A DNA stretch of 32,000 nucleotides from an uncultured Pseudomonadota bacterium (GTDB taxonomy: Bacteria > Babelota > Babeliae > Babelales > RVW-14): contig CAZHRK010000005.1 of assembly GCA_964534555.1 (NCBI GenBank), positions 1-32,000 on the forward strand, read 5' to 3'. Both the position numbers and the translations under genes were made by a program. Positions 1 to 28,628 of this stretch are shown in pieces; within the stretch, counting starts at the first letter, position 1; the number at the start of each line of letters is the position of its first letter. The notes beneath the pieces were generated by a model. It was not told where the DNA came from. It made no database searches and saw only the letters and a list, made by a program, of their open reading frames with translations.

Positions 1-850
1 TTCGACCGCCTTTAGTCTTGAGCTTGTCGAAAGGTCAGGGCGAGCGGGGATAGAAGATATTACTTATCTAGTCAGCACGCATCTCACGGCAAGCGGGGGT
101 GGCATCAATCGGGGCGACTAGGGCCGGCGCGGGCAGGAACAGTGGGCTGCCAGGGTCGTTTTAGGCAGGAACAGGCCTAATATAAAAATGTATTTCAATA
201 TATTTATAAGCAAAACCTGTTCCTGTTTTGCAATTGCCCCCAAAGCCCTGTCTCCTGTTTAGGAATTACCCTAAATGCCCGCTCGATCAAACCCTTCGAC
301 AAGCTCAGGGCGAGCGGTAGGGGTAGTTATCTAAAAAATAATTATGGGTTACGTACTGCTTGATTGCAGCGTGTTATCCGGAGGTTCACGGAGGAGTCCT
401 CCGTGCGTTAGTGTAACTTCGCCGGTGCGATCACCTGGAGCATATATGCGAGGGTGATCGGTGGCTGGTCAAGCGAAGCCAGCGCTGGTGGTCTGGGTCC
501 AGGGTGGTGACCAAACACCATCCTGGACGTCTGCGGCCGACGCCGCACAAATAATTAATCATTATTATTAATAATTAAAATTATGATCATTACATAAAAT
601 ATGAGTTTAAAAATACGTATAGCCTAAACCTGTTCCTGTTTAGGAATTGCCCCAAAGGACCCGCTCGATCAAACCCGCAGGCACGCTCAGGGCGAGCGGG
701 GATAGAAGACATCACTTATGTAGTTGTACGCACACTCACGGCGAGCGGGGACAAGTTCATCACACTGAATAAAGAGTTATTAGGGTAGTCGCCAGACAGG
801 AACAGGTTTGGCATATCACATATAAAATTACATGCATTAATAAATTCAAA
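1..850. repeat. Intergenic mosaic-repeat block 1 (modules A, C, H, AT core; encloses S copy 1)
   Basis: A long A variant truncated by the window edge lies at 1..47, and full 39-bp A modules lie at 279..317 and 661..699. H hairpins: TTAGGCAGGAACAGGCCTAA 161..180, GCAAAACCTGTTCCTGTTTTGC 210..231, CCTAAACCTGTTCCTGTTTAGG 623..644, GCCAGACAGGAACAGGTTTGGC 791..812. Segment ~35..290 is homologous to ~7625..7880. Confidence 0.9.
323..600 (+). repeat. S element copy 1: multi-copy GC-rich structured element (candidate ncRNA or non-autonomous mobile element)
   Basis: GC-rich core 346..548 lies between AT-rich flanks. Helices readable directly: CACGGAGG 387..394 / CCTCCGTG 398..405; GATCACC 429..435 / GGTGATC 453..459; GCTGG 464..468 / CCAGC 479..483; GTCCAGGGTGGTG 497..509 / CACCATCCTGGAC 516..528; TGCGGC 532..537 / GCCGCA 542..547. 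Near-identical copies occur at 7321..7590 and 20560..20848 (minus strand). There is no ORF. Confidence 0.8.
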
Positions 851-2168: not shown

Positions 2169-3527
2169 ATGAAGCGGCTTATTGATTACGCCTTGCTTGA
2201 ATGGAAGCAAAACCCTTCCCGTAAGCCACTTCTCGTGCGGGGTGCTCGTCAGGTAGGTAAAACATATGCGCTCAGGGTACTGGGAAAGACTTACGAATCA
2301 TTTGTTGAGGTTAACCTTGAGGAAAACGAGTATGCCAGGCAGATTATTGAGCGTGATTATGATGTTCAGCGTATTATTTTACAGTTGTCTGAATATCTGC
2401 AGCAGGAGATTACGCCAGGCAAAACACTTCTTTTTTTTGATGAAATTCAGGCTTCGCCTCGAGCGATTACTGCGTTGCGCTATTTTTACGAGCGGCTTCC
2501 GCAGCTGCACGTTGCCGCTGCTGGCTCATTATTAGAATTTGCTTTGGAGCAGGTTGGTGTGCCGGTGGGGCGTATTGAATCACGCTTTATGTACCCGTTA
2601 TCATTTGTTGAGTTTTTAGCTGCGCAGGGTAACTCCTTCTGGCTCAAGGCGCTGATTCAAGCACGTCCAGAAGCCCCGCTTTCTGCTGAGCTGCACGTAG
2701 CGCTTATGAATCAAGTCAGTGTGTATTTAGCTGTTGGTGGTATGCCCGAGGCAGTGTCGACATGGCTTGCACAAAAAACATCACGCGCTGTCATGCGCGT
2801 GCACGCGACGCTCCTTGAGTCGTATCAACAAGATTTTGGCAAGTATGCGGCTAAGCACCAAATGAAATATTTAGATCAGATATTTCAAAAAGCGCTTAGA
2901 CAGCTTGGCACCAAATTTATATTTGCGCATGTGGGTGACTATAAAAAGAGGGAGCTTGCGCCGGCTGTTGATCTGCTTGTAAAGGCGGGTGTTTTGCATA
3001 AGGTTTTTAAAACTTCAGCTCAGGGGGTGCCGCTTGGTGCAGAGGCTGAGCTTGATGATTTCAAAATTATTTTTTTAGACTGCGCGCTTGCGCAGGCCCA
3101 GCTTGGCCTTGACCCATCTGCGTGGCTTATTGGTTCTGATAAGCAATTTGCAAATCAAGGAGCATTAATCGAGGCTTTTGTTGGGCAAGAGCTTTTGGCC
3201 TACAGTAACTGGATGCGGCGCGAGCAGCTTTTTTATTGGCGCAGAGATATCAAGGGGAGTGATGCTGAGGTTGATTATGTTGTTCAGCATAATCAAAGCA
3301 TTGTTCCTATCGAAGTTAAAGCCGGTGCTAACAGACGTATTAAAAGTATGTATCTTTTTCTTGAGAGCAGGGCTGATGCTGCTCTTGCACCCGCGGGAAT
3401 ACGAATCTGGGGCGGAGGTTTTGAAAAAGAGCAGGTGCTGAGCTCGTATCCACTTTATGCAATTATTTGTTTTATGCTTGTGGTTAATCATGAGCTCCAA
3501 GAGGTTGTTGATCAGCTTATAAAATGA
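2169..3527 (+). CDS. AAA+ ATPase, AAA_14/DUF4143 family (COG1373-like)
   Basis: 452-aa ORF. Walker A is GARQVGKT and the Walker B-like motif is LLFFDEIQ. The C-terminal part, with AEVDYVV...IVPIEVKAG, is characteristic of the DUF4143 nuclease-like module. Confidence 0.85.
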   Translation: MKRLIDYALLEWKQNPSRKPLLVRGARQVGKTYALRVLGKTYESFVEVNLEENEYARQIIERDYDVQRIILQLSEYLQQEITPGKTLLFFDEIQASPRAITALRYFYERLPQLHVAAAGSLLEFALEQVGVPVGRIESRFMYPLSFVEFLAAQGNSFWLKALIQARPEAPLSAELHVALMNQVSVYLAVGGMPEAVSTWLAQKTSRAVMRVHATLLESYQQDFGKYAAKHQMKYLDQIFQKALRQLGTKFIFAHVGDYKKRELAPAVDLLVKAGVLHKVFKTSAQGVPLGAEAELDDFKIIFLDCALAQAQLGLDPSAWLIGSDKQFANQGALIEAFVGQELLAYSNWMRREQLFYWRRDIKGSDAEVDYVVQHNQSIVPIEVKAGANRRIKSMYLFLESRADAALAPAGIRIWGGGFEKEQVLSSYPLYAIICFMLVVNHELQEVVDQLIK

Positions 3528-3985
3528 TGTTATGCCAAACCTGTTCCGGTCTGGCGACTACCCTAAAAAACTGTTTGCTGTTTTGCAACGCCCCAAAGGG
3601 CCGCTCGATCAAACCCGCAGGCATGCTCAGGGCGAGCGGGTATATAAACAAACGCTTTTATAGGCAGTGGGTGCGCTCAGGGCGAGCGGTAAGGGTAATC
3701 GCAAAACAGGAACAGGTTTTGCATTATAAATATATGGAATTCATTATCAATTATATGCGGGCGCGGGAGTTGCCCGCCCGACCCCAAAAGCCTCTTCCAG
3801 CCTAAGACGACCCTAGAGGTCCGCTCGATCAGACCCTTCGACGAACTCAGGGCGAGCGGGGATAGAAGACATCACTTATCTAGTCAGCACGCATCTTACG
3901 GTGAGCGGTAGGGGTAGTCGCCAGACCGGAACAGGTTTGGCATATCATTATCATGAAATACATTTATTTTATAAGCGGGTGCCGC
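3528..3985. repeat. Intergenic mosaic-repeat block 3
   Basis: A modules at 3601..3639 and 3821..3859. D module ~3640..3689 and C module ~3860..3908. H hairpins are present (GCCAAAC..GTCTGGC at ~3535, GCAAAAC at ~3701, GCCAGACCGGAACAGGTTTGGC at ~3920), with AT core ~3725..3760. Confidence 0.9.
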
Positions 3986-4284
3986 ATACACACACCACAA
4001 AAAAACCTTGCTCTCGTGTCGAACATCGGCTAAGGTAATTTTCAGACAATTGGTTTGCGTTTGTCACAAAAAAAGAGCACAGCATCATGCCATGGCCTTG
4101 AGCCTTGCTACGAGCATGATGATCCAGTCGCCAAAGCTGCAATCTGGACAGGCAAGAAAGGAGGCTCAAAAAGGAGAAGCAAACAATCTTGTTGACTTTT
4201 TAGTCTTGGATTCGGAATAGTAAGCATACGTAATTGTGCGTATGACGATCATAAGCCTATGTTTATTGTGTGAGGTACATACTT

Positions 4285-5826
4285 ATGAATAAATCTCTAA
4301 AGGGTTTATTAGTAGCCCTTCTCGCTGTTAGCGCTGCATCAGCAAATAACAGCACAAACAAAACATTTTTGATGCCACGTTCCCACGGTGTTAACCTTCC
4401 AATGGAAGCTACAACATTTGGTGAACTAACGCATCGTAGAGCAAAAGATGCTTTCGGTGGTAACCTGCAAGTTTCAGGTTTCTACAGCGCAAGCACAAAT
4501 GGTGAAGAGCAAGCAAAATACTTCTTGTTTGCTAATAAGAGCAAAGTTGAATTTGTAGGCAGAACCGCTGCAGCAAAAGATGGCATACTTGAGTACGCAT
4601 TACATGATACACCAGGTGTCGCTGCGGCTAACAGAGATACGCGAGTTCCTGTGGATGCTCTTGCAGGCCTTAGCCTAGATCCAGAGCAAACAGCGTATGG
4701 TGTGCGTTTTGACTATCACCAAGATTTGAGCAAGATCCTTCGTGGTCTTTACCTCAGAGCAAGCCTTCCTGTTGCTCATGTAGAGAATGATGTTCAAGTA
4801 AAAACAACATCTGCTGGGGCAGGTCTTCCTGTTGCTATGACAGGTCTTGCAGTTGTTACTCCTGCTGGTGATGTACTTAAGTCATACCTTGCAGGTACGT
4901 ACTCAAATGCTACAGCTGCTAACGCTCAAGAGAAATTAACACACGCTTTAGTTGCTGGTGCGCAATCAGAAACAGGCGTTGCTGATATTGATGTTCAGCT
5001 CGGCTATAAGGTGCTTGATAAAGCAAACTACCATATGGCGCTTGCACTCGGCTTAACGATTCCTACAGGAAACGAAGCTGATGGCAAATACCTTTTCCAA
5101 CCAATTGTTGGTAATGGTAAGCACTTTGGCCTTGGTGGTGATGTATGCGCTGGCGCACGTGTGTGGGGCGATATGGACCACAACCTCCGCCTCAGCATGC
5201 ACCTTCGTTACCGCTATCTTTTCGAGTCATCACAAAAGCGTACACTTGGCCTAAAAAATCAAGATGGTTCAGCTATTGCATTTGCACAATATGCACTTGT
5301 TCAAGTTGAAGCAGCTGGTGCTAACGCTGCACTTAGACCTTTTGCAAACGTGTTCACTGTTAATACAGATGTAACCCCAGGCAGCCAGCTTGATGGCAGC
5401 CTTGCACTTGCGTATAACAATGGTGGCTGGTCTGTTGATCTTGGCTACAACATGTTCTATCGCGAAGCTGAATCTGTTAAAATCAAAGGTACGGCTCCAG
5501 AAAAATATGCTGTGGTAAACCAGGTTTGGGATACTACTCAAGTTTTTCCTGCTGCAACAGGTGCAAACTTTGCTGTTACTGCTAATGGTAATGCTAACGC
5601 TCTTAATGCTGGTAGCCATTATCTTATTACAAAAGACAATCTCGACCCCCGTGCAGCTGCAACTGATTCAGCGTTCACAAACGCGATCTATGCTGGCGCT
5701 GGCTACACATTCAAAGAGTGGGATACACCTTTGATGCTTGGCGTAGGTGGCAAATACGAATTTGCTAACGACAACAACGCTCTCGAGCAATGGGGCGTAT
5801 GGGGTAAAGTTGGTGTTGGTTTCTAA
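4285..5826 (+). CDS. Outer-membrane beta-barrel protein (porin-like), family 1, paralogue of 28629..30518
   Basis: Signal peptide MNKSLKGLLVALLAVSAASA; GAGG lies 8 nt upstream of ATG 4285 (the track start at 4270 is a GTG). The mature part has alternating beta-strand-like segments. The C-terminus ...WGKVGVGF ends in Phe, as in the OMP beta-signal. It shares TNKTFLMPRS, ADIDxxxGYK, TIPTGN and YLFQPIVGNG-type motifs with the 28629 gene. Confidence 0.8.
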   Translation: MNKSLKGLLVALLAVSAASANNSTNKTFLMPRSHGVNLPMEATTFGELTHRRAKDAFGGNLQVSGFYSASTNGEEQAKYFLFANKSKVEFVGRTAAAKDGILEYALHDTPGVAAANRDTRVPVDALAGLSLDPEQTAYGVRFDYHQDLSKILRGLYLRASLPVAHVENDVQVKTTSAGAGLPVAMTGLAVVTPAGDVLKSYLAGTYSNATAANAQEKLTHALVAGAQSETGVADIDVQLGYKVLDKANYHMALALGLTIPTGNEADGKYLFQPIVGNGKHFGLGGDVCAGARVWGDMDHNLRLSMHLRYRYLFESSQKRTLGLKNQDGSAIAFAQYALVQVEAAGANAALRPFANVFTVNTDVTPGSQLDGSLALAYNNGGWSVDLGYNMFYREAESVKIKGTAPEKYAVVNQVWDTTQVFPAATGANFAVTANGNANALNAGSHYLITKDNLDPRAAATDSAFTNAIYAGAGYTFKEWDTPLMLGVGGKYEFANDNNALEQWGVWGKVGVGF

Positions 5827-5902: not shown

Positions 5903-5918
5903 ATTGCAAGGAGCATTT

Positions 5919-6158
5919 GTGAGCCCAACTGTTTTACGGTATAAAAATTATAGACTTTTCTTTTTCTCTCATGAGGAGCCGCGTATGCATGTGCATATTT
6001 CATCTCCTGATGGTGAGGCCAAGTTTTGGCTAGAGCCAATGGTTGCACTTGCTGATTATAGCGGGTATTCTGAGAGGCAGCTTAAAGAGCTTTCAAAATT
6101 GGTAGAAAAACATGCAAAAGAAATTGAAAAAGCCTGGAAAAAACACTTTAGGGTTTGA
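5919..6158 (+). CDS. DUF4160-domain protein
   Basis: AAGGAG 5908..5913 lies 5 nt before GTG 5919 (the track start at 5904 is a TTG). The sequence VSPTVLRYKNYRLFFFSHEEPRMHVHISSPDGEAKFWLEP fits the DUF4160 pattern (short N-terminal strand plus a histidine-rich motif). Confidence 0.75.
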   Translation: MSPTVLRYKNYRLFFFSHEEPRMHVHISSPDGEAKFWLEPMVALADYSGYSERQLKELSKLVEKHAKEIEKAWKKHFRV

Positions 6159-6381
6159 GATTTCTAATATCTCACGCCATGGAATGTGGCTTTTGATTGG
6201 CGAAAAAGAGTTCTTCATATCGTTTAAAGAGTATCCCTGGTTTTTGCAAGCAAAAATTGATCAGGTATATGCGGTTGAGTTTGCACACGGCAAATTCCTG
6301 CATTGGCCCGAGCTCGATATTGATATTGAGCTTGCTGCGCTTGAAAATCCTACGGCATATCCACTTGTTTATAAAAAGTAG
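6112..6381 (+). CDS. DUF2442-domain protein (usual partner of DUF4160)
   Basis: 89-aa ORF overlapping the end of the DUF4160 gene. WLLIGEKEFFISFKEYPWF...LHWPELDIDIEL matches the DUF2442 pattern (xxHWPxLDxDI). The start is uncertain: ATG 6112 or TTG 6124. Confidence 0.7.
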   Translation: MQKKLKKPGKNTLGFEISNISRHGMWLLIGEKEFFISFKEYPWFLQAKIDQVYAVEFAHGKFLHWPELDIDIELAALENPTAYPLVYKK

Positions 6382-6387
6382 TATTTT

Positions 6388-6423
6388 AAGAGAGGGCCCT
6401 GCGCTAGCGCAGGGCCCTCTCTT
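6388..6423 (+). terminator. Perfect 17-bp-arm palindrome after the DUF2442 gene (terminator-like hairpin)
   Basis: AAGAGAGGGCCCTGCGC-TA-GCGCAGGGCCCTCTCTT. It shares GCTAGCGCAGGGCCCT with the hairpin at 5874..5902. Only a short or interrupted T tract follows. Confidence 0.5.
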
Positions 6424-6829
6424 ATTAGAATAATTTTAAGTAATTATATTTGATAAGCCAAACCTGTATCCGGTCTGGCGACTACCCTAACAACCGATTA
6501 TTCAGTGTGATGATGCCAGCCCCCGCTCGCCCTGAGTTTATCGAAGGGTCTGATCGAGCGGCCTTTTTGAGCCGTCTTAGGCAGGAAACAGTGCGCCGCT
6601 AGGGCCGGGCGGGCAGGAACGGGCCCGCATATAATAAAGTATGAAATCCATATATTTATAAGCAAAACCTGTTCCTGTTTTGCGATTACCCTAGAAAACG
6701 AACATTTGTCTGATGATCTTGTCCCCGCTCGCCCTGACCTTTCGACAAGCTCAAGACTAAAGGCGGTCGAAGGGTTTGATCGAGCGGACCTTGTGTTAAT
6801 AAATCTATTACTCAAATTAATCATAATTT

Positions 6830-7095
6830 TATGTATTAAAAATAATGATTAATTAATAATTGTGCGGCGTCGGCCGCAACCGACCAAAGGGGTGCATCGA
6901 CCACCCCTCTGGACACAGGTCGCCAGGCTACGCCCTGGACCCAGCGCTTCAGCCACAGCAGCATCGCCTTCAGCACACACGCTGCGCGTGATGCGCTGCT
7001 CAGCTGCTGGAAGTGCCTCGGCCCGGCACTTGACTCAGCGCGTAATGACCGGCATAGCTGCGCGGCGATACTCATTAAGCACGTTGCTTCGTTAA
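6830..7095 (-). repeat. S element copy 4 (divergent homologue, minus strand)
   Basis: It shares the terminal hairpin with S1-3 (plus-strand TGCGGC 6863..6868 / GCCGCA 6873..6878), the AT-rich tail, and GCGCTGGGTCCAGGG. The equivalent long helix is CCAAAGGGGTG 6884..6894 / CACCCCTCTGG 6902..6912, with compensatory changes relative to S1. The remainder is GC-rich but diverged. Confidence 0.6.
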
Positions 7096-7240
7096 AATTA
7101 ATTATGTGAGTATCTTGCGTAGCACGCAGTTTTGAGCGCTGCGCGCCTGACGACCAAAAACGCTACGGTCTCAAAGCGCGCTACGCGCTGGCTTGTTCGA
7201 CACGGCTGTTTTGGCTCAACGGAAAATAATGATATAAGCA
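7095..7240 (+). repeat. Short GC-rich structured segment lying back-to-back with S copy 4
   Basis: It starts with AATTATGTGAGTATCTTGCGTAGC, which resembles the 5' end of the S elements (AATTATGGGTTACGTAC). GCGTAGC.CGC pairs with GCGCGCTACGC further on. It is seen once only in this window. Confidence 0.35.
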
Positions 7241-7320
7241 AAACCTGTTCCTGTTTAGGTATTGCCCCAAAGGTCCGCTCATGCAAACCCTTCGACGCGC
7301 TCAGGGCGAGCGGGGACAAA

Positions 7321-7590
7321 GTAGTTATCTAAAAAATAATTATGGTTTACGTACAGCTTGATCGCAGCGTGTTATGCGGAGGTTCACGGAGGTGTCCTCC
7401 GTGCGTTAGTGTAACTTCGCCGGTGCGATCACCTGGAGCATGTATGCGAGGGTGATCGGTGGCTGGTCCAGCGATGCCAGCGCTGGTGGTCTGGGTCCAG
7501 GGTGGTGACCAAACACCATCCTGGTCGTCTGCGGCCGACGCCGCACAAATAAATAATCATTATTATTAATAATTAAAATTTAATGTAAGA
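7321..7590 (+). repeat. S element copy 2
   Basis: Aligns base-for-base with 323..600, with a few substitutions (e.g. the loop of the CACGGAGG hairpin, and GGTCCAGCGATGCC versus GGTCAAGCGAAGCC). It is preceded by A 7275..7313 and followed by A 7598..7636, both in the same orientation. Confidence 0.8.
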
Positions 7591-8018
7591 AAGAGGATCG
7601 CTCGATCAAACCCTTCGACAGGCTCAGGGCGAGCGGGGATATAAGACATCACTTATCTAATCAGCATTCACCTCAGGGCGAGCGGGGGTTGATACATCTG
7701 GGCGCTTATTAGGGCCGGCGCGGGGGTGGCATCAATCGGGGCAGTTGGGGCCGGGCGGACAGGAACAGTGGTCTGCCAGGGTCGTCTTAGGCAGGAACAG
7801 GCCTAATATAAAAATGTATTTCACTATATTTATAGCCTAAACCTGTTCCTGTTTTGCAATTTCCCCAAAGGTCCGCTCGATCAAACCATTCGACAAGCTC
7901 AGGGCGAGCGGTAGGGGTGATACATCTGGACCGCCAGGGTCGTCTTAGGCAGGAACGGGCCTAATTAAATAAAATATGAATTCCATATATCTTCAGCATC
8001 ACCAGGCAACGCAGAGTC

Positions 8019-8047: not shown

Positions 8048-8172
8048 AATTCTATTCATTTATTTTTGAGTGAGAGAGCTTTATGCAAAGTTTGTTTGCA
8101 GTCAAAAAGCCTTGTGGACGAGAAAATCGCTCCAGATCAAAAAAGAATAAGATCTTATTAAGGAGAGTGTGT

Positions 8173-11100
8173 ATGAATAAATCGATTAAAAAGGTGCAGG
8201 GCGCCACGCGCGTTGGTGCAGCACTGATTATCCTCAGTCTCTGCTTCGTGCAGAATGCTGATGCCGCGCGTGTAACTGCTGGACTTGCTCAACCTGCGAC
8301 TAAGACAGCATTTGGTGGTGGTAAGTTTTTCACCGGTGCTGGTGCAGTTGGTGCTAATGAAAATTCAGTTGCTCGCTATCAAATTAATGCTGCTGGTAAT
8401 CTTGACCAAGTTGGTCTCGCGCCAGATGTTGGTGTTAAAGTAAACGGTGGTGCTGTTGCAGGCCCGCTTCATAATAAGGCTATTTCCGCCCTTGCTGCAA
8501 CGTCTGACGGCTCTGCAGTCGCAGCGGTCGATGCTGCTGCGCCAGCAAAAATCCATCTTATTACAAATACTAATGATGGGAAAACTGTTGTTAATACTCC
8601 AGTAGAAATCAAAGATGCCGCAGCAGTAGCTGCGAACGCCCTTGCTGTTCCTGCTCTGGCAGTCACAAGCTCAGAAATTCATATATCTGGTGGAGCGGGT
8701 GCTGAAGTTAAGAAAAAGCTTATTTTTTCAGTGGCGTCTCCTGCCGCATCTGTTCATTCTAAGAATGCGGGGATTCATGTTTTGTCAGTTGAAGCAGATA
8801 GTCTTCAAGCAAAACAGAATGATAATCTTACAGTTAATGCTGCTAATAAACCCTTAAAAATTTCAGAAGCTGTTTTTGATATCGCTAACGCTGATACAAG
8901 TCTGGAAAATCCTACAAATATCTGTTTTCATTGGAATAATTATTTAGAGCGACTTTATTTGGGCCTTGATAATGTTAAGGTCGCAAATGTTAATAATTCG
9001 GGTGCGCTTTCTTTGGGTATGCTTAGCGTTGACCCTACAGCAGGTGGTGATACTGGCGCAATAAATTTCGTGCCTGTTGCTGTTGCAGCTGGTTTGACAC
9101 GAGCAGATGATCATCTTGGGATCGGGTTTTTGCAGAATGCTGCTCCACCTGTAGCAGTAGTTGCTCCAAAAATTTATAATATTGTTTCTACAAGGACATC
9201 AACAAATAAAGATCTTATTATATTTAATGGTTCTGGGCGAGCAGGTAATGATTCACAAACTCCAGTTTATGCATTACCCCTTGTATCAACCGATGGACCA
9301 GACAAAGGTAAAATTGGTTACTTAGATGGAGCTAATCCTTACCAAGCTCTTCAAGCAGGGCATGAATTAACAAATCTAGGGCTTAGTCCCTCAGCGTTTG
9401 TGGGTAGTAATCCACTTCTTTTGTCTTCAGATTCTAAGGCAGCAATATCTCATTTAGCTGCGTATGGCGATAGTGTTTACGTCTCCATGGCTGGTGATAG
9501 AGTGATTGGTGGTGCTGGTGGGCTCCCTGTTCATACAGAAGAGGCTGGTATTTTTAAATCAACAGCGCTGTTTGATGAACATGGAAACGTTCGCAGCTGG
9601 ACGCCTTGGACGCGCGCAGTACCACCAGTTCATAATAATAATGGTGTATTAAATGCTTATAAAGCATATGGCTTTGGCGTTGATGAAGCGCAGGGCGCGC
9701 TCTGGTTTGTTACTGATGACGCCGCACATGCACAAAAGCGTGTTGCACTCTCTGAGTGGACAGATAGCGCAGCAACTGCACACGCAGATGATCCAATGAA
9801 AGGCTTATCACCTGTTCTGGCTGGACTTGGTGCAACAAGCATAAGCACTGTTGCACACTTTGATGAGTCAACAATTGGGTTTAAACGTGTAGGTGCTGGT
9901 GCTGCAGCAGATAAAAATTACCAATTTATTGCGCTCACTGCTCTTGCCGACAATACAAATCAAAAGCTTGTGCTTGCACAAACAGGTGCACGTAGCGCAG
10001 CAGAAGCTGGTGATGCTAACGCCTTTGGTCCGGTGCAGGACTTTACACCAGCAAACAGAGTAGTTAACCTAAGCGATGCTAAATATTATGCAAATGGGGC
10101 AAGCGGCTCTGTTGTTGCTGCTCTTGGCTCTATCGACGCAATTGAGCTTGCGCGTAGTACAGTAGCAGACAAAGGCTGGCTGTTTGTCGGTGGTGAAAAA
10201 GGCATCGCGGTCATGAGAAAATCTGATGGCGGTGAAAAAGGCAAAGGATTTAACTCATTTGTAGGGCTTGAAAATCTTAATCCTGCTGCAGGTGAATTCC
10301 CTGGCGATGGTGGCGCAAATGAATTTAAATTTGCGCAAATTGTGTCGTACCTTACTAATGCAGGTGAAGTTTCTGTTACGGACGAACTGAAAAATGTGCG
10401 TAAAGTTGTTTCTGACGGAACATATATTTATGCATTAACACCATCAAAACTTATTCGTATTGCGATGGGTATAGAAAGCTTTAAAGAGGGTAAGATTCAG
10501 AAGGTTGCTGGAGCAGCCGGCGGTACTGTGGGGCATGAGTATTATCAAGTCCTTGCTGATTTGAATGATATTGCACCTAAAAAAGCTGATTTAGTTGCTG
10601 GAGGTTTTGGAGCTCCTATCAACGATATCTCTGCAGCGTCAGATGAGTTCTTTGACCTCTTGCTTCTTGATAAAACAGCACTAGGAGCGGCTGATGCTGA
10701 TGCAGGTCCTGCTGGTGCAGCTAAGAAGATAGCGCTTGCGACAACGCGCGGTTTATTTGTAAACGAAGCAGATATGCGTGGTGAAGGGGTTGCAGCAGCT
10801 AATGGTAAACAATGGAAGCTTGTTACAGATGCATTCTCTACCGTCCTTAAGATGGATTTTGTGAGCTCTGTGCGCGGTGGCAGATTTGCTGCTGGTGGCG
10901 TCAAAGATGGTAACTTGTATGTTACAGCGCTTGACGCAAACAAAGAGAGCGTCTGTGTGTATCGCCTTGACGTGCAGGGTGGAGCGGCGCCTAAGCTTGT
11001 TGATAACACAGCTGCAACAGGTTCTTCGTATTTGTACAAGCTTGGAACAATTGATGAAGCGCTTCGCGGCGACTTGAGCTTTGATATGCCTGCTGACTTG

Positions 11101-11331
11101 GTCGGTAGAAATGATATCTACAACCCAGGCGGCCAGCTGCTTGAGTCTGTTCAGCTTGAGCCAACATCTGCGCAGTATGCAGAGGCAATAGATAAAAAAG
11201 GTGCACAACCAGTTGATTTCAAAAACGTATTTTACACCAATCCGCTTCCGATCAGCGGTGTGCCGGTGCAAGATAGTGCATCAGGTGCTGTGTATATTCC
11301 AGGAGAGTTTGGACTCTTGGTAAGAGAGTAA
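8173..11331 (+). CDS. Large secreted Ala/Gly-rich protein, paralogue 1 (function unknown; possibly a repeat/propeller-like surface protein)
   Basis: AGGAG lies 7 nt upstream of ATG 8173. Signal peptide MNKSIKKVQGATRVGAALIILSLCFVQNADA. The 1052-aa protein shares HWNNYLERLYLGL, GDSVYVSMAG, GIFKSTALFDEHGNVRSWTPW, GWLFVGGEKGIAVM and the C-terminal PGEFGLLVRE with the 12374 gene. Confidence 0.85.
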   Translation: MNKSIKKVQGATRVGAALIILSLCFVQNADAARVTAGLAQPATKTAFGGGKFFTGAGAVGANENSVARYQINAAGNLDQVGLAPDVGVKVNGGAVAGPLHNKAISALAATSDGSAVAAVDAAAPAKIHLITNTNDGKTVVNTPVEIKDAAAVAANALAVPALAVTSSEIHISGGAGAEVKKKLIFSVASPAASVHSKNAGIHVLSVEADSLQAKQNDNLTVNAANKPLKISEAVFDIANADTSLENPTNICFHWNNYLERLYLGLDNVKVANVNNSGALSLGMLSVDPTAGGDTGAINFVPVAVAAGLTRADDHLGIGFLQNAAPPVAVVAPKIYNIVSTRTSTNKDLIIFNGSGRAGNDSQTPVYALPLVSTDGPDKGKIGYLDGANPYQALQAGHELTNLGLSPSAFVGSNPLLLSSDSKAAISHLAAYGDSVYVSMAGDRVIGGAGGLPVHTEEAGIFKSTALFDEHGNVRSWTPWTRAVPPVHNNNGVLNAYKAYGFGVDEAQGALWFVTDDAAHAQKRVALSEWTDSAATAHADDPMKGLSPVLAGLGATSISTVAHFDESTIGFKRVGAGAAADKNYQFIALTALADNTNQKLVLAQTGARSAAEAGDANAFGPVQDFTPANRVVNLSDAKYYANGASGSVVAALGSIDAIELARSTVADKGWLFVGGEKGIAVMRKSDGGEKGKGFNSFVGLENLNPAAGEFPGDGGANEFKFAQIVSYLTNAGEVSVTDELKNVRKVVSDGTYIYALTPSKLIRIAMGIESFKEGKIQKVAGAAGGTVGHEYYQVLADLNDIAPKKADLVAGGFGAPINDISAASDEFFDLLLLDKTALGAADADAGPAGAAKKIALATTRGLFVNEADMRGEGVAAANGKQWKLVTDAFSTVLKMDFVSSVRGGRFAAGGVKDGNLYVTALDANKESVCVYRLDVQGGAAPKLVDNTAATGSSYLYKLGTIDEALRGDLSFDMPADLVGRNDIYNPGGQLLESVQLEPTSAQYAEAIDKKGAQPVDFKNVFYTNPLPISGVPVQDSASGAVYIPGEFGLLVRE

Positions 11332-12262: not shown

Positions 12263-12311
12263 GCATATGCGCGCACCATCTTTTAATCGAAGCACCATGC
12301 AATGCAGAGTC

Positions 12312-12340
12312 TTGCAAAACCCCCCATTTCTTCTTATGGT
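12312..12340 (+). promoter_or_regulatory. Sigma70-like promoter candidate of the 12374 gene
   Basis: TTGCAA 12312..12317, a 17-nt spacer, then TATGGT 12335..12340. AAGGAG 12361..12366 precedes ATG 12374. The geometry matches 8019..8047. Confidence 0.5.
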
Positions 12341-12373
12341 AATGGTATTGTTTGTGTAAAAAGGAGATTGTGT

Positions 12374-15300
12374 ATGAACCAACATAAACACGTTCGTGTG
12401 GTGGCATCACCACAACGCAAAACACGCTTAGTTGCGCTCTTAGCATTAAGCTGCTGTTTTGTGCAGTCAGTGAGTGCGACGCTTGCAAGTGCCGCTCATA
12501 AAACGCCATTATCAAATGTTCGATTCGTTCCATCGCGTGAAACATCAGTCCTGTACGCAGGTGCCGCTGTAGCTCCTGCTGCAAATAAATCAGAAATGAT
12601 TGTGCGCGCGCAGCTTGGCACTGACGCAACCGGTGAGCCAGAAATTGAGCTGAATGAAATCGGTGCAAACATCGCTGGTGGACTTAAGGAAGTTACTCAC
12701 CTTGCGGTTTCACCAAACGGCACAGTGCTCAGCTTTGTAACGCCAACAGCTGCTGGTGATGAAGTTAAAAAAGTGCAGCAGCTGTACAGCCCTGCAGCGT
12801 CAGAAAAGCCAGCGGCAGAGATTTCAGCAGTGCTTAATGATGCTAATGGAAACGCTACAGAAGGTATTGTTGCGCTTGCGTCAAATGATACATATGCATT
12901 TGCAGCAGTGAGGGAGGCTGGTCAAGCATGGACTGCTGGTGATGAACGCGGTATTGCCGTTGTTAAGCATGGTGCAGCAGGTACAGCGCCAGATCAGAAG
13001 CAAGCTGGTGACCTTACCACAGCAGCAGCTGGCGCTCCTGATGATTCGCTCAAACTCTCTGTTAATTCCGCAGACAACCTTGTTGCATTTAAAGATCCTG
13101 CAGCTGCTGCAGTACTTGATTTTGATGCACAACTAACATCAAATAATGTTGCGATGCACTGGAACCCGTACAACGATCGTTTGTACGTTGGGCTTGGTGG
13201 CATTCGTCGTCCTGCTGGTCAAGAGGGTGGTGTGCTCGGCGTGACGGTTGGTCGTGTTGAGGCCGATGCGTTCAAATTAGCTGCTTTTGCACAAGCTAAT
13301 CCTGGCGTTATCCCAACTAAAGCTTTATTTTATGATGCTGCAGGGCAAAATAATGCGCTTGGTATTATCGGTTCATACCGTGATGCTGGATTTGGCGGTG
13401 GTACCGTAAGCGTTAATAAAATCGCATCACTCCACACAAGCACCGGAAAAGATTACCTCGTGGTTGCAAGCGAAGTTGCTGGTAGCGGTCCGCTCCAACC
13501 AACACAAAGTGGTGTGTATGCACTTCTGCTTAATAGTGACACTGCAGCTGCAGAAAAAACTGGATCAGTTGCTAAAGTTGCAAACTGGAAAACTCAACCA
13601 GCTGCCTATGGTGAGATGCCTCATGCAGCAGATGCAGCTGCGCGCATTCCACTCAGCCTTACGCAAGCGCAAATCGCTGATATTTTCTGCGAGGGCGACA
13701 GTGTGTATGTAGCTGCAAATGGCGCTAACCAAGCAGTTGCAGGGCTCTTTCAGTCACGCGCGCTGTTTGATGAAAACGGCTATATCTCAAGCTGGACATT
13801 GCCACAGCAAGTGCTTGCCGGACACGGTAAAGTTGTTGGTGCTGGTGTAGACGCCGCGACAGACACAATTATTGCAGTCGCGTCAGAAGGCCGTGATAGT
13901 GCAAAGAATGCAAACACTGTGTACGCAACACAATGGACAGCGGGTAAAGATAGTGCTCCTGGAGACTCTAACCTTCGCACAGTATTAGCTGAAAAATTCC
14001 CAGCAGAAGAGGGCGGCGTGCAGCAGCTGTTTATGTTTAGCGAAGCGACACCAGGATTTGCCGCTAATCGCTTAACGCTTGGTGTTGCGATTTCTGGCAG
14101 CAAGGTTGGACTTATTCAAGTTGCGCAGCGCGAAATCGGTGTTGGTGTAAACGCAGGCGTTGCACCAACGGTTGATTATGCTGTAGCAAAAGTATTTGTG
14201 TACGAAGATAACGAAGTTCTTAAGTCTATTGCGCCGCTTACTTCAGCATGCGTTGTTGACGGTACAAACGGCGGTTGGCTGTTTGTTGGTGGTGTGAACG
14301 GTGTTGCTGTGCTCAGCGGTAACGGCGGTGGTTTAGTTGCGAATACTAATGAGATTCCTGCTGGATCAGGCTGGAAGCTTTCGCTCGGTGCAAACGGCGG
14401 GCTTGCTGGCCTTGCTAACACTGCATCAGCTGCTCCAAATACAAAAGCTGGCTACCCTGGCCCACTCGATGCAACTGATGTTGCTGCAGCTGCAGCTGAT
14501 AACGCTGGCTACACCTGGAAGCAGCTTATTCCAGAAGCTGCTAATCTTTCTAACTTTGACAATGTACAAAAACTCATCGGCACAAACGGCCACAATGGTG
14601 ATGGTCAGCTCTTTATCTTGACTGATAAAGGTTTTTACCGCGTTGTGCCAACAGTTCCAACAATGGTCCTAAATACACCAAACCTTCATGAGGTTGATCT
14701 GCTCAGATTGCCTGCGTATGAAGTTGCGTATGGTCCTGCAAACCAAGTAACAGCTGCTGGATTTGCTGCTGGTGCTGCTGTTACCGCTCTTCAAGCACGC
14801 CTTGAAGACGCTGTACTGCTTGATGCGGTTGCGCTTGACTTCAAGCCAGGAACGGCGGCACCTGCAGCTGCTGCTCAGCAGACCTTTATCATATCATCAA
14901 CTAAAGGTATTGATCTGATTCAGATTACTGCACCACTACCTGCTGGAGCATTAACTGCCCTCCTGCCAGCTGAAAACTTTGAGACTGCTCCGCTTCTTGA
15001 TGGCAAGATTATTTTAAGCCTTGCGTACCAAAGCAGATCACGCAGCGGCGCAACACAAAAAGGTGAGCTGGTAGCCCTTGAAGCCGACTTTAGCCAAGAG
15101 CCATCAGTTGGTGTCTTGCACCGTCTCGCTGTTAATGCTGACGGTGGTTTTGCTGATATTCTTAAACTAGTTGCTGCTGCCCAGTATCCGCTTGCACAGG
15201 CGCGTGCTGCAGTGCTCCCGGTTGGTGCTGGGTATCTGCATACCCGTGGTAAGCACTTTGGTGATACAAACTATGCAGAAACACTTATGCCAAGCACACG

Positions 15301-15469
15301 TTTGAACCAAGCTCAAGATGGTAAGCTTGCTGACAGCGTTGTTGGCCAGTCGGTGGTAAGCTTGTTTGACCTTGACGCAGAAGCATCACTCGTTGGTAGA
15401 CCAGTGGTTGACCCAGCGACAGGAAACGTGATTGTTCCTGGTCAGTGGGGTGTTGTCGTTAAAGGTTAG
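12374..15469 (+). CDS. Large secreted Ala/Gly-rich protein, paralogue 2 (function unknown)
   Basis: Signal peptide MNQHKHVRVVASPQRKTRLVALLALSCCFVQSVSA. The 1031-aa protein carries HWNPYNDRLYVGL, GDSVYVAANG, GLFQSRALFDENGYISSWTLP, GWLFVGGVNGVAVL and the C-terminal PGQWGVVVKG, all collinear with the 8173 gene. Confidence 0.85.
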   Translation: MNQHKHVRVVASPQRKTRLVALLALSCCFVQSVSATLASAAHKTPLSNVRFVPSRETSVLYAGAAVAPAANKSEMIVRAQLGTDATGEPEIELNEIGANIAGGLKEVTHLAVSPNGTVLSFVTPTAAGDEVKKVQQLYSPAASEKPAAEISAVLNDANGNATEGIVALASNDTYAFAAVREAGQAWTAGDERGIAVVKHGAAGTAPDQKQAGDLTTAAAGAPDDSLKLSVNSADNLVAFKDPAAAAVLDFDAQLTSNNVAMHWNPYNDRLYVGLGGIRRPAGQEGGVLGVTVGRVEADAFKLAAFAQANPGVIPTKALFYDAAGQNNALGIIGSYRDAGFGGGTVSVNKIASLHTSTGKDYLVVASEVAGSGPLQPTQSGVYALLLNSDTAAAEKTGSVAKVANWKTQPAAYGEMPHAADAAARIPLSLTQAQIADIFCEGDSVYVAANGANQAVAGLFQSRALFDENGYISSWTLPQQVLAGHGKVVGAGVDAATDTIIAVASEGRDSAKNANTVYATQWTAGKDSAPGDSNLRTVLAEKFPAEEGGVQQLFMFSEATPGFAANRLTLGVAISGSKVGLIQVAQREIGVGVNAGVAPTVDYAVAKVFVYEDNEVLKSIAPLTSACVVDGTNGGWLFVGGVNGVAVLSGNGGGLVANTNEIPAGSGWKLSLGANGGLAGLANTASAAPNTKAGYPGPLDATDVAAAAADNAGYTWKQLIPEAANLSNFDNVQKLIGTNGHNGDGQLFILTDKGFYRVVPTVPTMVLNTPNLHEVDLLRLPAYEVAYGPANQVTAAGFAAGAAVTALQARLEDAVLLDAVALDFKPGTAAPAAAAQQTFIISSTKGIDLIQITAPLPAGALTALLPAENFETAPLLDGKIILSLAYQSRSRSGATQKGELVALEADFSQEPSVGVLHRLAVNADGGFADILKLVAAAQYPLAQARAAVLPVGAGYLHTRGKHFGDTNYAETLMPSTRLNQAQDGKLADSVVGQSVVSLFDLDAEASLVGRPVVDPATGNVIVPGQWGVVVKG

Positions 15470-15790: not shown

Positions 15791-15819
15791 ACCGTGTATT
15801 TAATATGGAGTTAGTAATT

Positions 15820-17106
15820 ATGAACAAAAAATTATCATTCAAGCTTCTTGGCCTTGGTCTAACCATGGCCATAGCAACAGCAAACGCTTTTGTGCCAATA
15901 AACTTTTTTAAATCATATGATGTAAACCTTCGTCACCACGACGCACCAAAAGGCAATCCATTTCGCTTTGGCGTAAACCTTGAGTACGGCCAAGGTCACG
16001 ATGGACGCAACTGGGACAGCAAAAAAGCAAACATCCTGCAAACGTACGAAGCAACTCAAGCAGTTATTCCAATGCTCATCAACGGCAAAAACGCTGACAT
16101 CACAGCAGCATACAACCACTTGCTCGTTGGTGGCGCTGCGCTAGATGATGGTACGCGCGGACACGTTGCGCTCACAGGTAAATTAAGCGCGCTCGAGACT
16201 CAGCTGCACGCTCGCTACGAGCTCCCAATCAGCCAAATCCCTGGCAAGCTCTCTATCGGCCTTGCGCTCCCAGTGCGCCACGCAAACGTGAGTGATATTA
16301 CGTTTAAAGACAATACACAAACACTCGCACCTGCTGATGCGCCGATTCGTGATCGTTATACAACCAGCCTTGAAATGCTGAACACAAAAATTACTGAGCT
16401 TGGTGGCGCTGACCTTAAGCCATGGTCACGCACAGGACTTGGTGACCTTGTGTTTATGGTTGATTGGAATAACAACTACCCACAAGAAAAAGAAGGCCTT
16501 AAAAACGTTCAGCTGCACGCAAAAGTTGGTGTAAGCATGCCAACGGGCGTTGAGCGCGATATTAAACACGCATTCAGCATGCCGTTTGGTAATGATGGTG
16601 CATGGGGAATGCCATTTGGTCTTGGTCTTAACCTTGATTTTAATTATCATATTCGCCTTGGCGCAGAAGCACAATTTGATGTTGTGTTTGATGAAAGCAA
16701 AGAGCGCTACATGAAAACAGACACACGCCAAACAGCGTTCTTACTCCTGAACAAAGGCGAAGCAACGATGGATCATGGTCTGACCTGGCAGTTTAACCTT
16801 TTCTTACAGGGCTATCAGTTCTGGAAGGGGCTTTCACTCAAGTTTGGCTATGAGTACCTTAAGCATGATGATGATCGTCTGACACCAAAAGCAGATACTT
16901 TTAATGCATCAGTTGCAAATAGTGCTGCATGGCTTCATGAATATAATCTGCACAACTTGATTTTCCAAGGCAGCTGGGATGCTGCTGGTTGCTGCGAAGA
17001 TTGGGGCGTAAAACCACAGCTTGTTGTGTTTTATAAACTGCCTGTTGGTGGCAAAAATATCGCAGCGTTTCAGACCTTTGGTGGTCAGCTCGCGATCTGC
17101 TTCTAA
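15820..17106 (+). CDS. Outer-membrane beta-barrel protein, family 2
   Basis: GGAG lies 9 nt before ATG 15820. Signal peptide MNKKLSFKLLGLGLTMAIATANA. The body is rich in aromatic/Gly beta-strand patterns, and the C-terminus ...FGGQLAICF ends in Phe. Confidence 0.75.
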   Translation: MNKKLSFKLLGLGLTMAIATANAFVPINFFKSYDVNLRHHDAPKGNPFRFGVNLEYGQGHDGRNWDSKKANILQTYEATQAVIPMLINGKNADITAAYNHLLVGGAALDDGTRGHVALTGKLSALETQLHARYELPISQIPGKLSIGLALPVRHANVSDITFKDNTQTLAPADAPIRDRYTTSLEMLNTKITELGGADLKPWSRTGLGDLVFMVDWNNNYPQEKEGLKNVQLHAKVGVSMPTGVERDIKHAFSMPFGNDGAWGMPFGLGLNLDFNYHIRLGAEAQFDVVFDESKERYMKTDTRQTAFLLLNKGEATMDHGLTWQFNLFLQGYQFWKGLSLKFGYEYLKHDDDRLTPKADTFNASVANSAAWLHEYNLHNLIFQGSWDAAGCCEDWGVKPQLVVFYKLPVGGKNIAAFQTFGGQLAICF

Positions 17107-17133: not shown

Positions 17134-17170
17134 GAGCCTGGACGGGGAACCGTTCGGGCTCTTTTTTATT
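17134..17170 (+). terminator. Rho-independent terminator of the 15820..17106 gene
   Basis: 12-bp stem GAGCCTGGACGG 17134..17145 / CCGTTCGGGCTC 17150..17161 (2 G-T pairs), loop GGAA, T6 at 17162..17167. Confidence 0.8.
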
Positions 17171-17420
17171 AGAATAATTTTAAGTAGTTATATTTTGATA
17201 AGCCAAACCTGTTCCGGTCTGGCGACTGCCCTAAGGGGTAATACCTAAACAGGAGACAGGGCTTTTGGGGCAATTGCAAAACAGGATACAGGTTTTGCTT
17301 ATCACTATGTTGAAATACATTTTTATAAGCGGGCCTGTTCCTGCCCGCCCGGCCCCAACTGCCCAGATTGATGCCCCTCACCGCTCGCCCTGAGCCTGTC
17401 GAAGGGTTTGATCGAGCGGA
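17166..17420. repeat. Intergenic mosaic-repeat block 7a
   Basis: TTATTAGAATAATTTTAAGTAGTTATATTTTGATAAGCCAAACCTGTTCCGGTCTGGCGACT is repeated at 6422..6485. H hairpins lie at ~17243, ~17275 and ~17330. Reverse A module at 17381..17419. Confidence 0.85.
17381..17419 (-). repeat. Module A (reverse orientation), 4 nt from the stop codon of the GIY-YIG gene
   Basis: CCGCTCGCCCTGAGCCTGTCGAAGGGTTTGATCGAGCGG, the inverted partner of 17738..17776. Confidence 0.95.
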
Positions 17421-17423
17421 CCT

Positions 17424-17711
17424 TTATATCTGATTGCTTAATTTGACAAGAGCGTCCCAATCGCCAGCGATAAGAGCTTCTTTTTTATTGCGGGACCATT
17501 TTTTTAAACGACGTTCAATTTTAAAAGCATCATCACGCGTTGCAAATGTTTGCATCCAAACGAGTTTAACAGGTAAGCGATTTGCAGTGAAACAGTGTGG
17601 CCAGTAAGCAGCATCGTGTTGTGCTAAGCGTGATCTAATATCATCGGTATGACCGATATAAAATGAATCATCAGCACATTTGAGAATGTATACAACAAAA
17701 TTTATCATCAA
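17424..17711 (-). CDS. Small GIY-YIG nuclease-domain protein (COG2827/URI-type)
   Basis: 95-aa ORF. FVVYILKCADDSFYIGHTDDIRSRLAQH contains the two GIY-YIG signature triplets (VYI ... YIG) and the conserved Arg. Its size and layout match stand-alone GIY-YIG proteins. Confidence 0.85.
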   Translation of the reverse strand: MMINFVVYILKCADDSFYIGHTDDIRSRLAQHDAAYWPHCFTANRLPVKLVWMQTFATRDDAFKIERRLKKWSRNKKEALIAGDWDALVKLSNQI

Positions 17712-17737
17712 AGTATTGAGTGAATTTTATGTATGGA

Positions 17738-17776
17738 CCGCTCGATCAGACCCTTCGACAAGCTCAGGGCGAGCGG
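17738..17776 (+). repeat. Module A (forward orientation), 26 nt upstream of the GIY-YIG start codon
   Basis: CCGCTCGATCAGACCCTTCGACAAGCTCAGGGCGAGCGG. It is the only forward-oriented A copy located to the right of position 8000. Confidence 0.95.
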
Positions 17777-18245: not shown

Positions 18246-18463
18246 TCAAGGTCAATCGCTATCCAGCAAGATTTTTTAGAGCAGGTGCAGGCCAAAACAT
18301 CTTTAGCATAAGAGTATTGAAATAGAGCGTTGTATTTGTGCCGGCGCAGCGCTTTATTGCAACAAACGCATAGCGTAATCTAAAAGATAGTTGTACAATT
18401 TCACTACATTCATTCTCTATCCAGATGTATTGATTATTACAGCCTACAAAAGGAGCTTTTTTG

Positions 18464-20164: not shown

Positions 20165-20965
20165 CTACCGATGGTTGCACATAAAGTGTGCGTGCTGACT
20201 AGATAAGTGGTGTGTTTTATCACCGCGCGACCTGAGCGTGCCCACTGTTTATAAAAGCGTTTTTTTATATCCCCGCTCGCCCTGACCTTTCGACAAGCTC
20301 AAGACTAAAGGCGGTCGAAGGGTCTGATCGAGCGGACCTTTGGGGCAATACCTAAACAGGAGACAGGTTTTTAGGGTAGTTGCCAGACCGGAACAGGTCC
20401 TCTAGGGCAATTGCAAAACAGGAACAGGTTTTGCTTATAAATATATTGAAATACATTTTTATATTAGGCCTGTTCCTGCCTAAGACGACCCTAAGCGCCC
20501 AGATGTATCAACCCCCGCTCGCCCTGAGCATGCCTGCGGGTCTGATCGAGCGGTCATCTTTCTTACATTAAATTTTATGTAATGATCTAATTTTAATTAT
20601 TAAAAATAATGATTAATTAATTGTGCGGCGTCGGCCGCAGACGACCAGGATGGTGTTTGGTCACCACCCTGGACCCAGACCACCAGCGCTGGCATCGCTG
20701 GACCAGCCACCGATCACCCTCGCATATATGCTCCAGGTGATCGCACCGGCGAAGTTACACTAACGCACGGAGGGCACCTCCGTGAACCTCCGCATAACAC
20801 GCTGCGATTCAGCTGTAGCTAAATAATAATTATTTTTTAGATAACTACCCCTACCGCTCGCCCTGAGCATGCCTGCGGGTCTGATCGAGCGGACCTTTGG
20901 GGCAATACCTAAACAGGAACAGGTTTAGGGTATAAATATAGTGAATTCATATTTTATATTAGGCG
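20165..20965. repeat. Intergenic mosaic-repeat block 8 (encloses S copy 3)
   Basis: Reverse A modules at 20273..20335 (63-bp long variant), 20515..20553 and 20854..20892. The H/AT composite at 20336..20495 is homologous to 28333..28495. Confidence 0.9.
20560..20848 (-). repeat. S element copy 3 (minus strand)
   Basis: Its reverse complement aligns along the full length with 323..600 and 7321..7590. It is flanked on both sides by A modules in the same relative orientation as for copies 1 and 2. Confidence 0.8.
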
Positions 20966-28510: not shown

Positions 28511-28628
28511 GACGACCGCAGCGCAGCAGTTTCTGTTTATCACTTACCAAAATTGATACTTTGTTCTGAGCAGCACAGCGCGTTTTGTGGCTCGTGACTT
28601 TGGTTTATACACGTTATTGGTGCATACA

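Follow-up and report, generated by a model that had tools for sequence, protein, structure and literature searches.

Structured intergenic repeats of several designs have been described in bacteria. In the bacterial interspersed mosaic elements (BIMEs) and repetitive extragenic palindromic (REP) mosaics of enterobacteria, as in the RIMEs of rhizobia, a palindromic unit of ~35-40 nt is combined with other motifs in fixed orders and orientations. Correia elements (Neisseria), ERIC/IRU sequences (enterobacteria) and Rickettsia palindromic elements (RPE) are 100-170 bp long, structured and abundant in intergenic DNA, where they are transcribed together with neighbouring genes and influence the processing or stability of mRNA; each is essentially one long imperfect palindrome, folding equally on both strands. 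Palindrome-associated elements derived from the IS200/IS605 insertion sequences (IS) have no inverted repeats or duplications, insert after a fixed short sequence and carry strand-specific subterminal hairpins, and the omega or right-end RNAs of TnpB include a structured non-coding RNA portion. Here, we analyse element S, a repeat of ~270 nt with a GC-rich, multi-hairpin core of ~180 nt, found in the first 32 kb of contig CAZHRK010000005.1 from an uncultured bacterium of the Babelales (‘the window’; ~46% G+C), the stretch to which all counts of S refer. We favour, at about even confidence, the reading that S belongs to a REP/BIME-like (or BIME/QMITE-like) mosaic as a structured repeat module, non-autonomous and restricted to its lineage, and it may act either as RNA or as single-stranded DNA.

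In Coxiella burnetii, QMITE1 and QMITE2 are structured, non-coding intergenic repeats of 150-400 bp; their terminal inverted repeats are 21-28 nt long, and direct repeats flank them (Wachter et al. 2018, PMC5896051). QMITE2 carries a GTAG REP and comes in long and short versions, and both QMITE1 and QMITE2 yield small RNAs (sRNAs), some copies being transcribed as CbsR3, CbsR13 and CbsR16 (PMC5896051). Judged by description, the closest documented analogue of S is this Coxiella pair. Both S and the QMITEs are structured, non-coding and intergenic, and both hosts encode ankyrin-repeat proteins, a comparison that sets descriptions and not sequences side by side. Unlike the QMITEs, S has by our estimate no inverted or direct repeats above chance, and its transcription is only presumed. 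The surrounding mosaic resembles BIMEs in that a palindromic unit (M1), a short hairpin module and S are combined, with a GTAG-like signal beside the hairpins. The extra motifs of BIMEs are tens of bases long, in contrast to the length of S and its multi-hairpin core, and the mosaic has no RAYT gene in the 32 kb. With IS200/IS605-derived elements S shares the lack of duplications and of inverted repeats above chance, a fixed short 5' sequence, strand-specific hairpins and an RNA-like part; it differs from them in that no TnpA or TnpB gene lies nearby, no IS605-related family was matched in Rfam, and its tail is conserved and not a guide derived from the flank. Like Correia, ERIC and RPE sequences it is a structured intergenic repeat, but one made of a row of separate hairpins with a much better fold on one strand. 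Overall, S looks like one more repeat module of a known sort and not a new RNA class, with a sequence that is unannotated and has no relatives in the databases searched.

A preliminary description of this DNA had reported three near-identical copies of the element and a further related one, which alignments, motif counts, nhmmer and a covariance model all bear out. The close copies extend over 324-600 (plus strand), 7322-7590 (plus) and 20560-20847 (minus). S1 (323-582) and S2 (7321-7580) are 96% identical, S1 and S3 (20572-20848, minus strand) 93.5% and S2 and S3 95.8%, with a 19-nt deletion in the tail of S2 relative to S1 and S3. The 18-mer TGCGGCCGACGCCGCACA occurs four times (0.04 expected), as does the AT-tail motif (0.01 expected), and the nhmmer profile and covariance model, built from S1-S3, matched exactly the four known places and no others in the window. 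The positions first given for the internal motifs (CGGAGG at 379-384 and 389-394, CCTCCG at 398-403, CCAGCGCTGG at 479-488) and for the arms of one helix (499-509/516-526 in S1, 6902-6912/6884-6894 in S4) all agree with the sequence. Every copy is intergenic, and the close copies are found in both orientations, S3 lying downstream of a Fic toxin-antitoxin operon in the same orientation. On the 5' side, the close copies begin just past the pentanucleotide GTAGT, at 328, 7326 and 20843. S1 is laid out as an AT-rich leader (328-370), a GC-rich core (371-549; 60% GC) and an AT-rich tail (550-~600) with a fuzzy 3' limit that blends into the AT leader of the following hairpin module. Since ~29% of columns vary in the leader stretch 340-370 (a count made by eye from the alignment) against 4.4% in the core, the core is the constrained part of S.

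The position of S within the local mosaic is equally regular. Nearly every intergenic region of the window is filled with short modular repeats, in arrays built on the 39-nt palindromic M1 (CCGCTCGATCArACCC, then TTCGACnn or GCAGGCnn, then GCTCAGGGCGAGCGG) followed by interchangeable segments; the window holds ~40 further copies of M1 (CCGCTCGATCAAACCCTTCGACAAGCTCAGGGCGAGCGG) beyond those at 279-317 and 661-699. The commonest segment, which begins with the linker TAGGGGTAGT ahead of a short hairpin, consists of TAGGGGTAGTC, a hairpin (loop AGGAACAG/CTGTTCCT, covarying stems) and an AT-rich trailer ending in ...ATGA. From a listing of every sequence 3' of GGGCGAGCGG and a module map, we find that M1 is followed by S, by a GTAGTC-hairpin module or by at least two other segment types. 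The junction runs from GCGAGCGGTAGGGGTAGT into TATCTAAAAAA at S1 and S3 and from GCGAGCGGGGACAAAGTAGT into TATCT at S2, GTAGT preceding all three alike despite the differing upstream linkers, and the linker before S also precedes the ordinary hairpin module elsewhere (e.g. TAGGGGTAGTCGCCAGACCGG). S stands in place of hairpin and trailer and meets the next M1 through ...GAAAGATGA followed by CCGCTCGATC, as ordinary trailers do. As in REP/BIME-type mosaics, it keeps a fixed position and orientation relative to the palindromic unit, in a slot open to other modules. The proposal that every copy is bracketed by co-oriented modules holds on both sides for S1-S3 and on the 3' side only for S4. The upstream M1 is of the TTCGAC sub-type for S1 and S2 and of the GCAGGC sub-type for S3; because these variants differ, the S copies are not plain segmental duplicates.

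The ends of S bear on its relation to mobile elements. At the junctions of S1-S3, no target-site duplication flanks the boundaries. Imperfect AT-only inverted repeats do surround the GC core, with 79% identity over 14 nt in S1 and, over 18 nt, 78% in S2 and 89% in S3; by our estimate, chance alone would give about one such match for any two stretches of A/T only. With classical (DDE-type) miniature inverted-repeat elements S has in common that it is short, non-coding and multi-copy (three close copies and one partial), and target-site duplications are lacking. With palindrome-associated elements it has in common the fixed pentanucleotide on its 5' side and the absence of duplication and of inverted repeats above chance, in only three related copies; neither a cognate TnpA (Y1 HUH) or TnpB nor a parent element was found within the window. 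It is conceivable, though distinctly unlikely, that S is a miniature derivative of an IS type that targets REP-like hairpins, either an IS200/IS605-type palindrome-associated element sitting 3' of a fixed short target with subterminal hairpins, or an IS110/IS1111-type element with a bridge RNA in its non-coding end. The GTAGT on the 5' side of all three close copies, the lack of duplication and of terminal inverted repeats above chance, and an orientation that is specific relative to the REP-like units, with strand-specific hairpins, all agree with such an origin. Against it, no IS-related RNA family was matched in Rfam, and no TnpA, TnpB or DEDD transposase was found in the window; the core has no guide-like complementarity of at least 7 nt to its own ends or flanks, and core-to-flank or core-to-end identity of at least 7 nt is likewise absent, bar one 7-mer in S2 in each case. 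Moreover, the remainder of an interrupted hairpin module is absent 3' of S, and the conserved sequence extends ~45 nt beyond the last hairpin, a distance that typical IS200/IS605 right ends do not reach. In Coxiella, the GTAG REP of QMITE2 is reported as a target of IS1111 (PMC5896051), which favours the derivation.

The predicted fold of S is stable and asymmetric between strands, upholding its first characterization as a GC-rich structured element. As RNA, the sense strand of S1 folds at -100.3 kcal/mol (z -5.05; 0/200 shuffles as stable), against -82.3 kcal/mol for the antisense strand. Over the 182-nt core, sense is ~15 kcal/mol more stable than antisense in each of S1-S3, with 7-10 G-U pairs against 0-1, and S4 folds moderately better than shuffles (z -2.7). 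Only 8 of the 182 core columns vary among S1-S3 and seven of these are unpaired, so that the early remark that substitutions fall mostly in loops holds; the bias has p = 0.002 in a permutation on pairing probabilities and 0.005 when sites are matched A/T versus G/C. Two of the eight variable sites fall in the 3-nt loop of hairpin H2, for whose CCTCCG partner the upstream CGGAGG could compete. Helix H4 keeps 12/12 pairs in all four copies: between S1-3 and S4, two pairs change on both sides (G-C to A-U, U-A to G-C) and two on one side (G-C to G-U, G-U to G-C), matching the compensatory substitutions initially described for an 11-bp helix. Three of the seven pairs of hairpin H3a are lost in S4. 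Across the whole structure, seven pairs are doubly changed, where shuffles give 1.7 ± 1.2 such pairs and slid controls 0-2; because the same four-row alignment also served to predict the consensus structure, H4 alone is taken as solid covariation, and helices drawn in the non-homologous 5' part are not trustworthy. Of the at least five helices first proposed, H4 covaries and terminal hairpin H5 is invariant, whereas the others have no solid covariation and H3a is partly broken in S4. Taken together as predictions, these folds show S under a constraint for hairpins that applies to a single strand, and some selection on the hairpins is visible in the pattern of substitutions. The many G-U pairs favour a constraint at the RNA level.

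What had been called a divergent copy, S4, is homologous to S1 over its 3' ~160 nt (plus-strand ~6820-7000 against S1 426-587), while S1 324-425 has no counterpart in it. BLAST aligns S4 only with S1 485-587 (76% identity; shuffle test z = 26); against S1 ~426-475 there is a collinear stretch with z 3-4, under permissive scoring and for a sub-region picked after viewing the alignment. Shuffle tests gave no similarity signal between the 5' part of S4 and S1 324-425, and the GC-rich 5' part of S4 (7000-7095) has no detectable similarity to the close copies. With the covariance model, S4 reaches 44.5 bits where the close copies reach ~222, and its 5' half is aligned differently than by MAFFT. Because similarity is confined to the 3' part of S1, the four sequences represent one conserved 3' module on two different GC-rich bodies. 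This shared module comprises a portion of the H3 region, helix H4 (12-13 bp), the invariant hairpin H5 and the AT tail.

A GC-rich stretch that occurs only once in the window adjoins S4 upstream (7098-7232, in minus-strand sense). Although it contains a long hairpin, GCGTAGCGCGCTTTGAG...CTCAAAACTGCGTGCTACGC, it folds no better than shuffles do (z -1.16).

Table 1. Positions of the S copies, their structural parts and the adjoining M1 units in the window.
Feature	Position	Strand	Basis or remark
S1, full copy	328..600	+	Repeat alignment, nhmmer, covariance model, junction listing
S2, full copy	7326..7590	+	Repeat alignment, nhmmer, covariance model
S3, full copy	20560..20843	-	Repeat alignment, nhmmer, covariance model
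S4, partial relative	6820..7095	-	Alignments, covariance model, shuffle tests
Hairpin H2 of S1 (CACGGAGG-N3-CCTCCGTG)	387..405	+	Fold, variable-site mapping
Long hairpin H3a of S1 (CGATCACCT...GGGTGATCG)	428..460	+	Region homologous in S4, pairing partly kept
Helix H4 of S1 (GTCCAGGGTGGTG-ACCAAA-CACCATCCTGGAC)	497..528	+	Sole helix with clear compensatory change relative to S4
Terminal hairpin H5 of S1 (TGCGGC-CGAC-GCCGCA)	532..547	+	Invariant in 4/4 copies
Conserved AT-rich tail of S1	548..587	+	Common to S4; without U-tract
Upstream M1 (279-317) and linker TAGGGGTAGT	279..327	+	Before S1
Downstream co-oriented M1	661..699	+	After S1
Upstream M1 and linker GGGGACAAAGTAGT	7275..7325	+	Before S2
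Downstream co-oriented M1	7598..7636	+	After S2
Upstream M1 and TAGGGGTAGT linker	20844..20892	-	Before S3
Downstream co-oriented M1	20515..20553	-	After S3

The same data speak to the idea that S has no function at all. In that case it would be a relic, e.g. what is left of a GC-rich foreign gene after decay, passively copied by segmental duplication or gene conversion among arrays, and its hairpins would simply follow from its G+C content. The known copies number only four and share one contig, with nothing related elsewhere in our searches; GC-rich sequence folds well anyway, and the z of S4 is only -2.7. Yet none of the 200 shuffles is as stable as S1 (z -5.05), variable sites avoid stems (p 0.005) and the four substitutions in H4 all keep pairing. 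The 3' module is also conserved across an otherwise unrelated body, and the differing upstream M1 variants do not fit simple segmental duplication, which makes this explanation, to our mind, quite improbable.

The element had been put forward as a candidate novel non-coding RNA or mobile element, and it matches no known RNA family: Rfam 15 gave 0 matches at gathering thresholds over the whole window, and its E-value mode, run with S1 and with S4 plus S2, returned only noise well under threshold (E 0.25 or higher). The window likewise yielded no tRNA or tmRNA gene. Pfam and NCBIfam scans of the window's sizeable open reading frames (ORFs) found no transposase, RAYT, TnpA, TnpB, reverse transcriptase, HNH or DEDD transposase gene, in line with the earlier statement that no reverse transcriptase, TnpB/IscB or HNH gene lies nearby, as far as reverse transcriptase, TnpB and HNH are concerned. 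A look by eye at integron attC features showed that neither strand has all the genes, that neighbouring genes are separated by several modules and that the window lacks an integrase.

Three further readings were tried and rejected. Protein coding fails since the ORFs inside S are of 36-46 aa only, S3 has no ATG, and a 1-nt indel in the H4 loop puts S1 and S4 in different frames; the claim of no internal ORF thus holds in the sense of no conserved one. A bridge- or guide-RNA reading fails, for guides of at least 7 nt, on the lack of core complementarity described above. A CsrA sponge fails because the GGA motifs of S1-3 are, by eye, missing from S4.

Signals for transcription bear on whether S could be a family of sibling trans-acting sRNA genes, ~200-250 nt long and read from the sense strand. 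Their hairpins would serve stability or protein binding, the 3' hairpins and A/U-rich tail would form the 3' end, and S4 would be a paralogue that joins this 3' scaffold to another 5' targeting domain. We regard this as unlikely, even though a sense-specific fold rich in G-U pairs, substitutions that avoid stems and a compensated helix H4 would all be expected of it, and a conserved 3' module on a different 5' body resembles modular sRNAs. There is also a promoter-like GGGACA-16-AATAAT at S2, with its -10 within the S leader, and the QMITE-derived sRNAs of Coxiella show that repeats can be sRNA genes (PMC5896051). Yet no sigma-70-like promoter was found at S1 or S3, and the -35 at S2 comes from the private flank of that copy. 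No intrinsic terminator was found at any S copy, though the genome uses canonical ones, hairpins plus T-runs following genes at 6385-6425 and 17135-17170. No copy, then, has both a promoter and a terminator of its own, as a stand-alone sRNA gene would. Further points against it are that the 5' leader, where the start site would be expected, is the least conserved part, that the fixed mosaic slot and the 94-96% identity including the AT flanks look repeat-like, and that there is no Rfam relative and no homologue in the collections searched.

The preliminary description had offered a choice between a non-coding RNA and a structured non-autonomous mobile element. The features on which it built stand (multi-copy, non-coding, GC-rich, strand-asymmetric), and either alternative may hold, although an independent RNA is weakened by the lack of a consistent promoter or terminator, by the fixed mosaic slot, by an S4 that shares the 3' module only and by the failure to find copies outside the contig in the collections searched. 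Very unlikely, in our view, is a combined possibility in which S is an expressed structured RNA of ~200-250 nt, a new class carried by the repeat system. Its 3' scaffold (H4, H5, tail) would then bear exchangeable 5' domains (the S1-3 and S4 types), and it would work with a protein of the M1/GTAG system, e.g. mobilizing or regulating that system.

Returning to the favoured reading, S as a non-autonomous module of a REP/BIME-like mosaic would spread as DNA together with M1 arrays or into them, which we infer because the GTAGT/M1 junction is fixed, the orientation is specific and there are no inverted repeats or duplications. A trans-acting enzyme would drive this spread by reading one-strand hairpins beside a GTAG-type signal, in a REP/RAYT-like or IS200/IS605-like single-strand mechanism; alternatively, recombination between M1 units may be responsible. 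The conserved 3' hairpin module would likely be the recognition or processing end, and S is probably also transcribed by read-through, as the Coxiella QMITE repeats are. Several points weigh against this picture. The 32 kb contain no gene for a transposase, RAYT, TnpA or TnpB, and the mobility of S is inferred only, because no empty site or insertion polymorphism was seen. S replaces the hairpin module without a clean interruption and, because the displaced remainder of that module does not follow it, simple insertion is not demonstrated. There are effectively two independent sequences (S1-3 and S4), so the covariation rests on one helix. Finally, the many G-U pairs are easier to reconcile with RNA than with single-stranded DNA. 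Should S be no more than a repeat module, it would be one further structured intergenic repeat family, of practical use as a marker and as an explanation for breaks in the assembly of this uncultured, effector-rich bacterium. It would carry more weight if it proved to be transcribed and to have a protein partner, since the mosaic would then be one that carries a modular RNA, with one 3' scaffold and different 5' bodies.

The source organism is represented only by short Logan contigs (SRR14271331, SRR14271335) and one NCBI contig. A hairpin-plus-tail pattern satisfied by all four copies found no S in metagenome and viral contig collections, and blastn gave no match in plasmid and phage collections. 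Among genome contigs, the 18-nt terminal-hairpin pattern returned 116 chance matches in GC-rich genomes, none of them S-like by blastn; the pattern is too unspecific for that scan to establish absence of S from sequenced genomes. Among predicted proteins, six-frame translations of S1-3 and S4 matched nothing at E up to 10, and exact look-ups of four S-region ORFs found none on record. A literature search returned nothing relevant on the repeat sequences or the M1-encoded peptide motif.

The surrounding mosaic may be of more interest than S itself, given M1 in unrelated AT-rich organisms, once in frame, an M1-flanked GIY-YIG gene and hairpins with a conserved loop. M1 occurs at 92-100% identity in the AT-rich metagenome contigs Ga0172370, Ga0172371 and Ga0172375, with short matches on Sphingobium plasmids. 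The metagenome loci carry it at 2612-2650 (L121), at 193-234 and 282-320 (L122) and at 222-260 and 306-344 (L123). In L121, M1 lies in frame inside a 244-aa ORF, translated as PLALSLSKGLIER, and so resembles Rickettsia palindromic elements; in L122 and L123 it forms an inverted pair with ~45-50 nt of AT-rich DNA between. Eight metagenome contigs found by the M1 pattern have only the 39-mer in common with the window, with no S by nhmmer or covariance model, and a GIY-YIG gene was not found in the metagenome M1 loci. In the window, a gene for a 95-aa GIY-YIG nuclease (17424-17711, minus strand) lies tightly between inverted M1 units (17381-17419, minus; 17738-17776, plus), and the whole (17381-17776) has a transposon-like layout.

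Hairpin modules number about 45 copies in the 32 kb (e.g. 196-239, 609-652, 1632-1675, 3520-3563, 17188-17231, 22368-22411, 18179-18200 and 17325-17350). Their loop is a conserved 8 nt, CTGTTCCT, or AGGAACAG on the other strand, and their stems vary yet stay complementary (GCAAAAC/GTTTTGC, GCCTAAAC/GTTTAGG, GCCAGAC/GTTTGGC, TAGGC/GCCTA, GCGGGC/GCCCGC), the GCCAGAC/GTTTGGC stem having a G-T wobble on one strand only. On their 5' side stands GGGTAGTC or GGGTAATC, a signal of the GTAG type that REPs also have. Within 6385-6460 and 17135-17205, the two canonical terminators are followed by the same ~40-nt sequence, TTATTAGAATAATTTTAAGTArTTATATTT(T)GATAAGCCAAACCTGT, and then by a hairpin module, so that a constant distance separates gene ends from the beginning of the repeat arrays.

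The genes of the window include toxin-antitoxin pairs (MNT/HEPN twice, DUF4160/DUF2442 and Fic), an AAA_14/DUF4143 ATPase and the small GIY-YIG nuclease. Five large ORFs of 433-1082 aa (8083-11331, 12302-15469, 4270-5826, 15805-17106 and 28587-30518) gave no significant Pfam or NCBIfam match; the 433-aa and 518-aa ORFs, the only two compared, had no match among PDB sequences, and the 1055-aa ORF, the only one searched, has an identical sequence as its sole database relative. Three large ankyrin-repeat proteins (18461-20161, 22898-25627 and 25696-28071) show faint similarity to Dot/Icm Ank effectors. This set of genes suggests a host-associated bacterium. The toxin-antitoxin-like pairs lie at 5904-6381 (DUF4160/DUF2442) and 20984-21618 (Fic). 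Two paralogous genes for MNT-type nucleotidyltransferase antitoxins (923-1634 and 21781-22095) are inverted relative to each other, with 85% DNA identity over 91 nt, and one of them is paired with a HEPN toxin.

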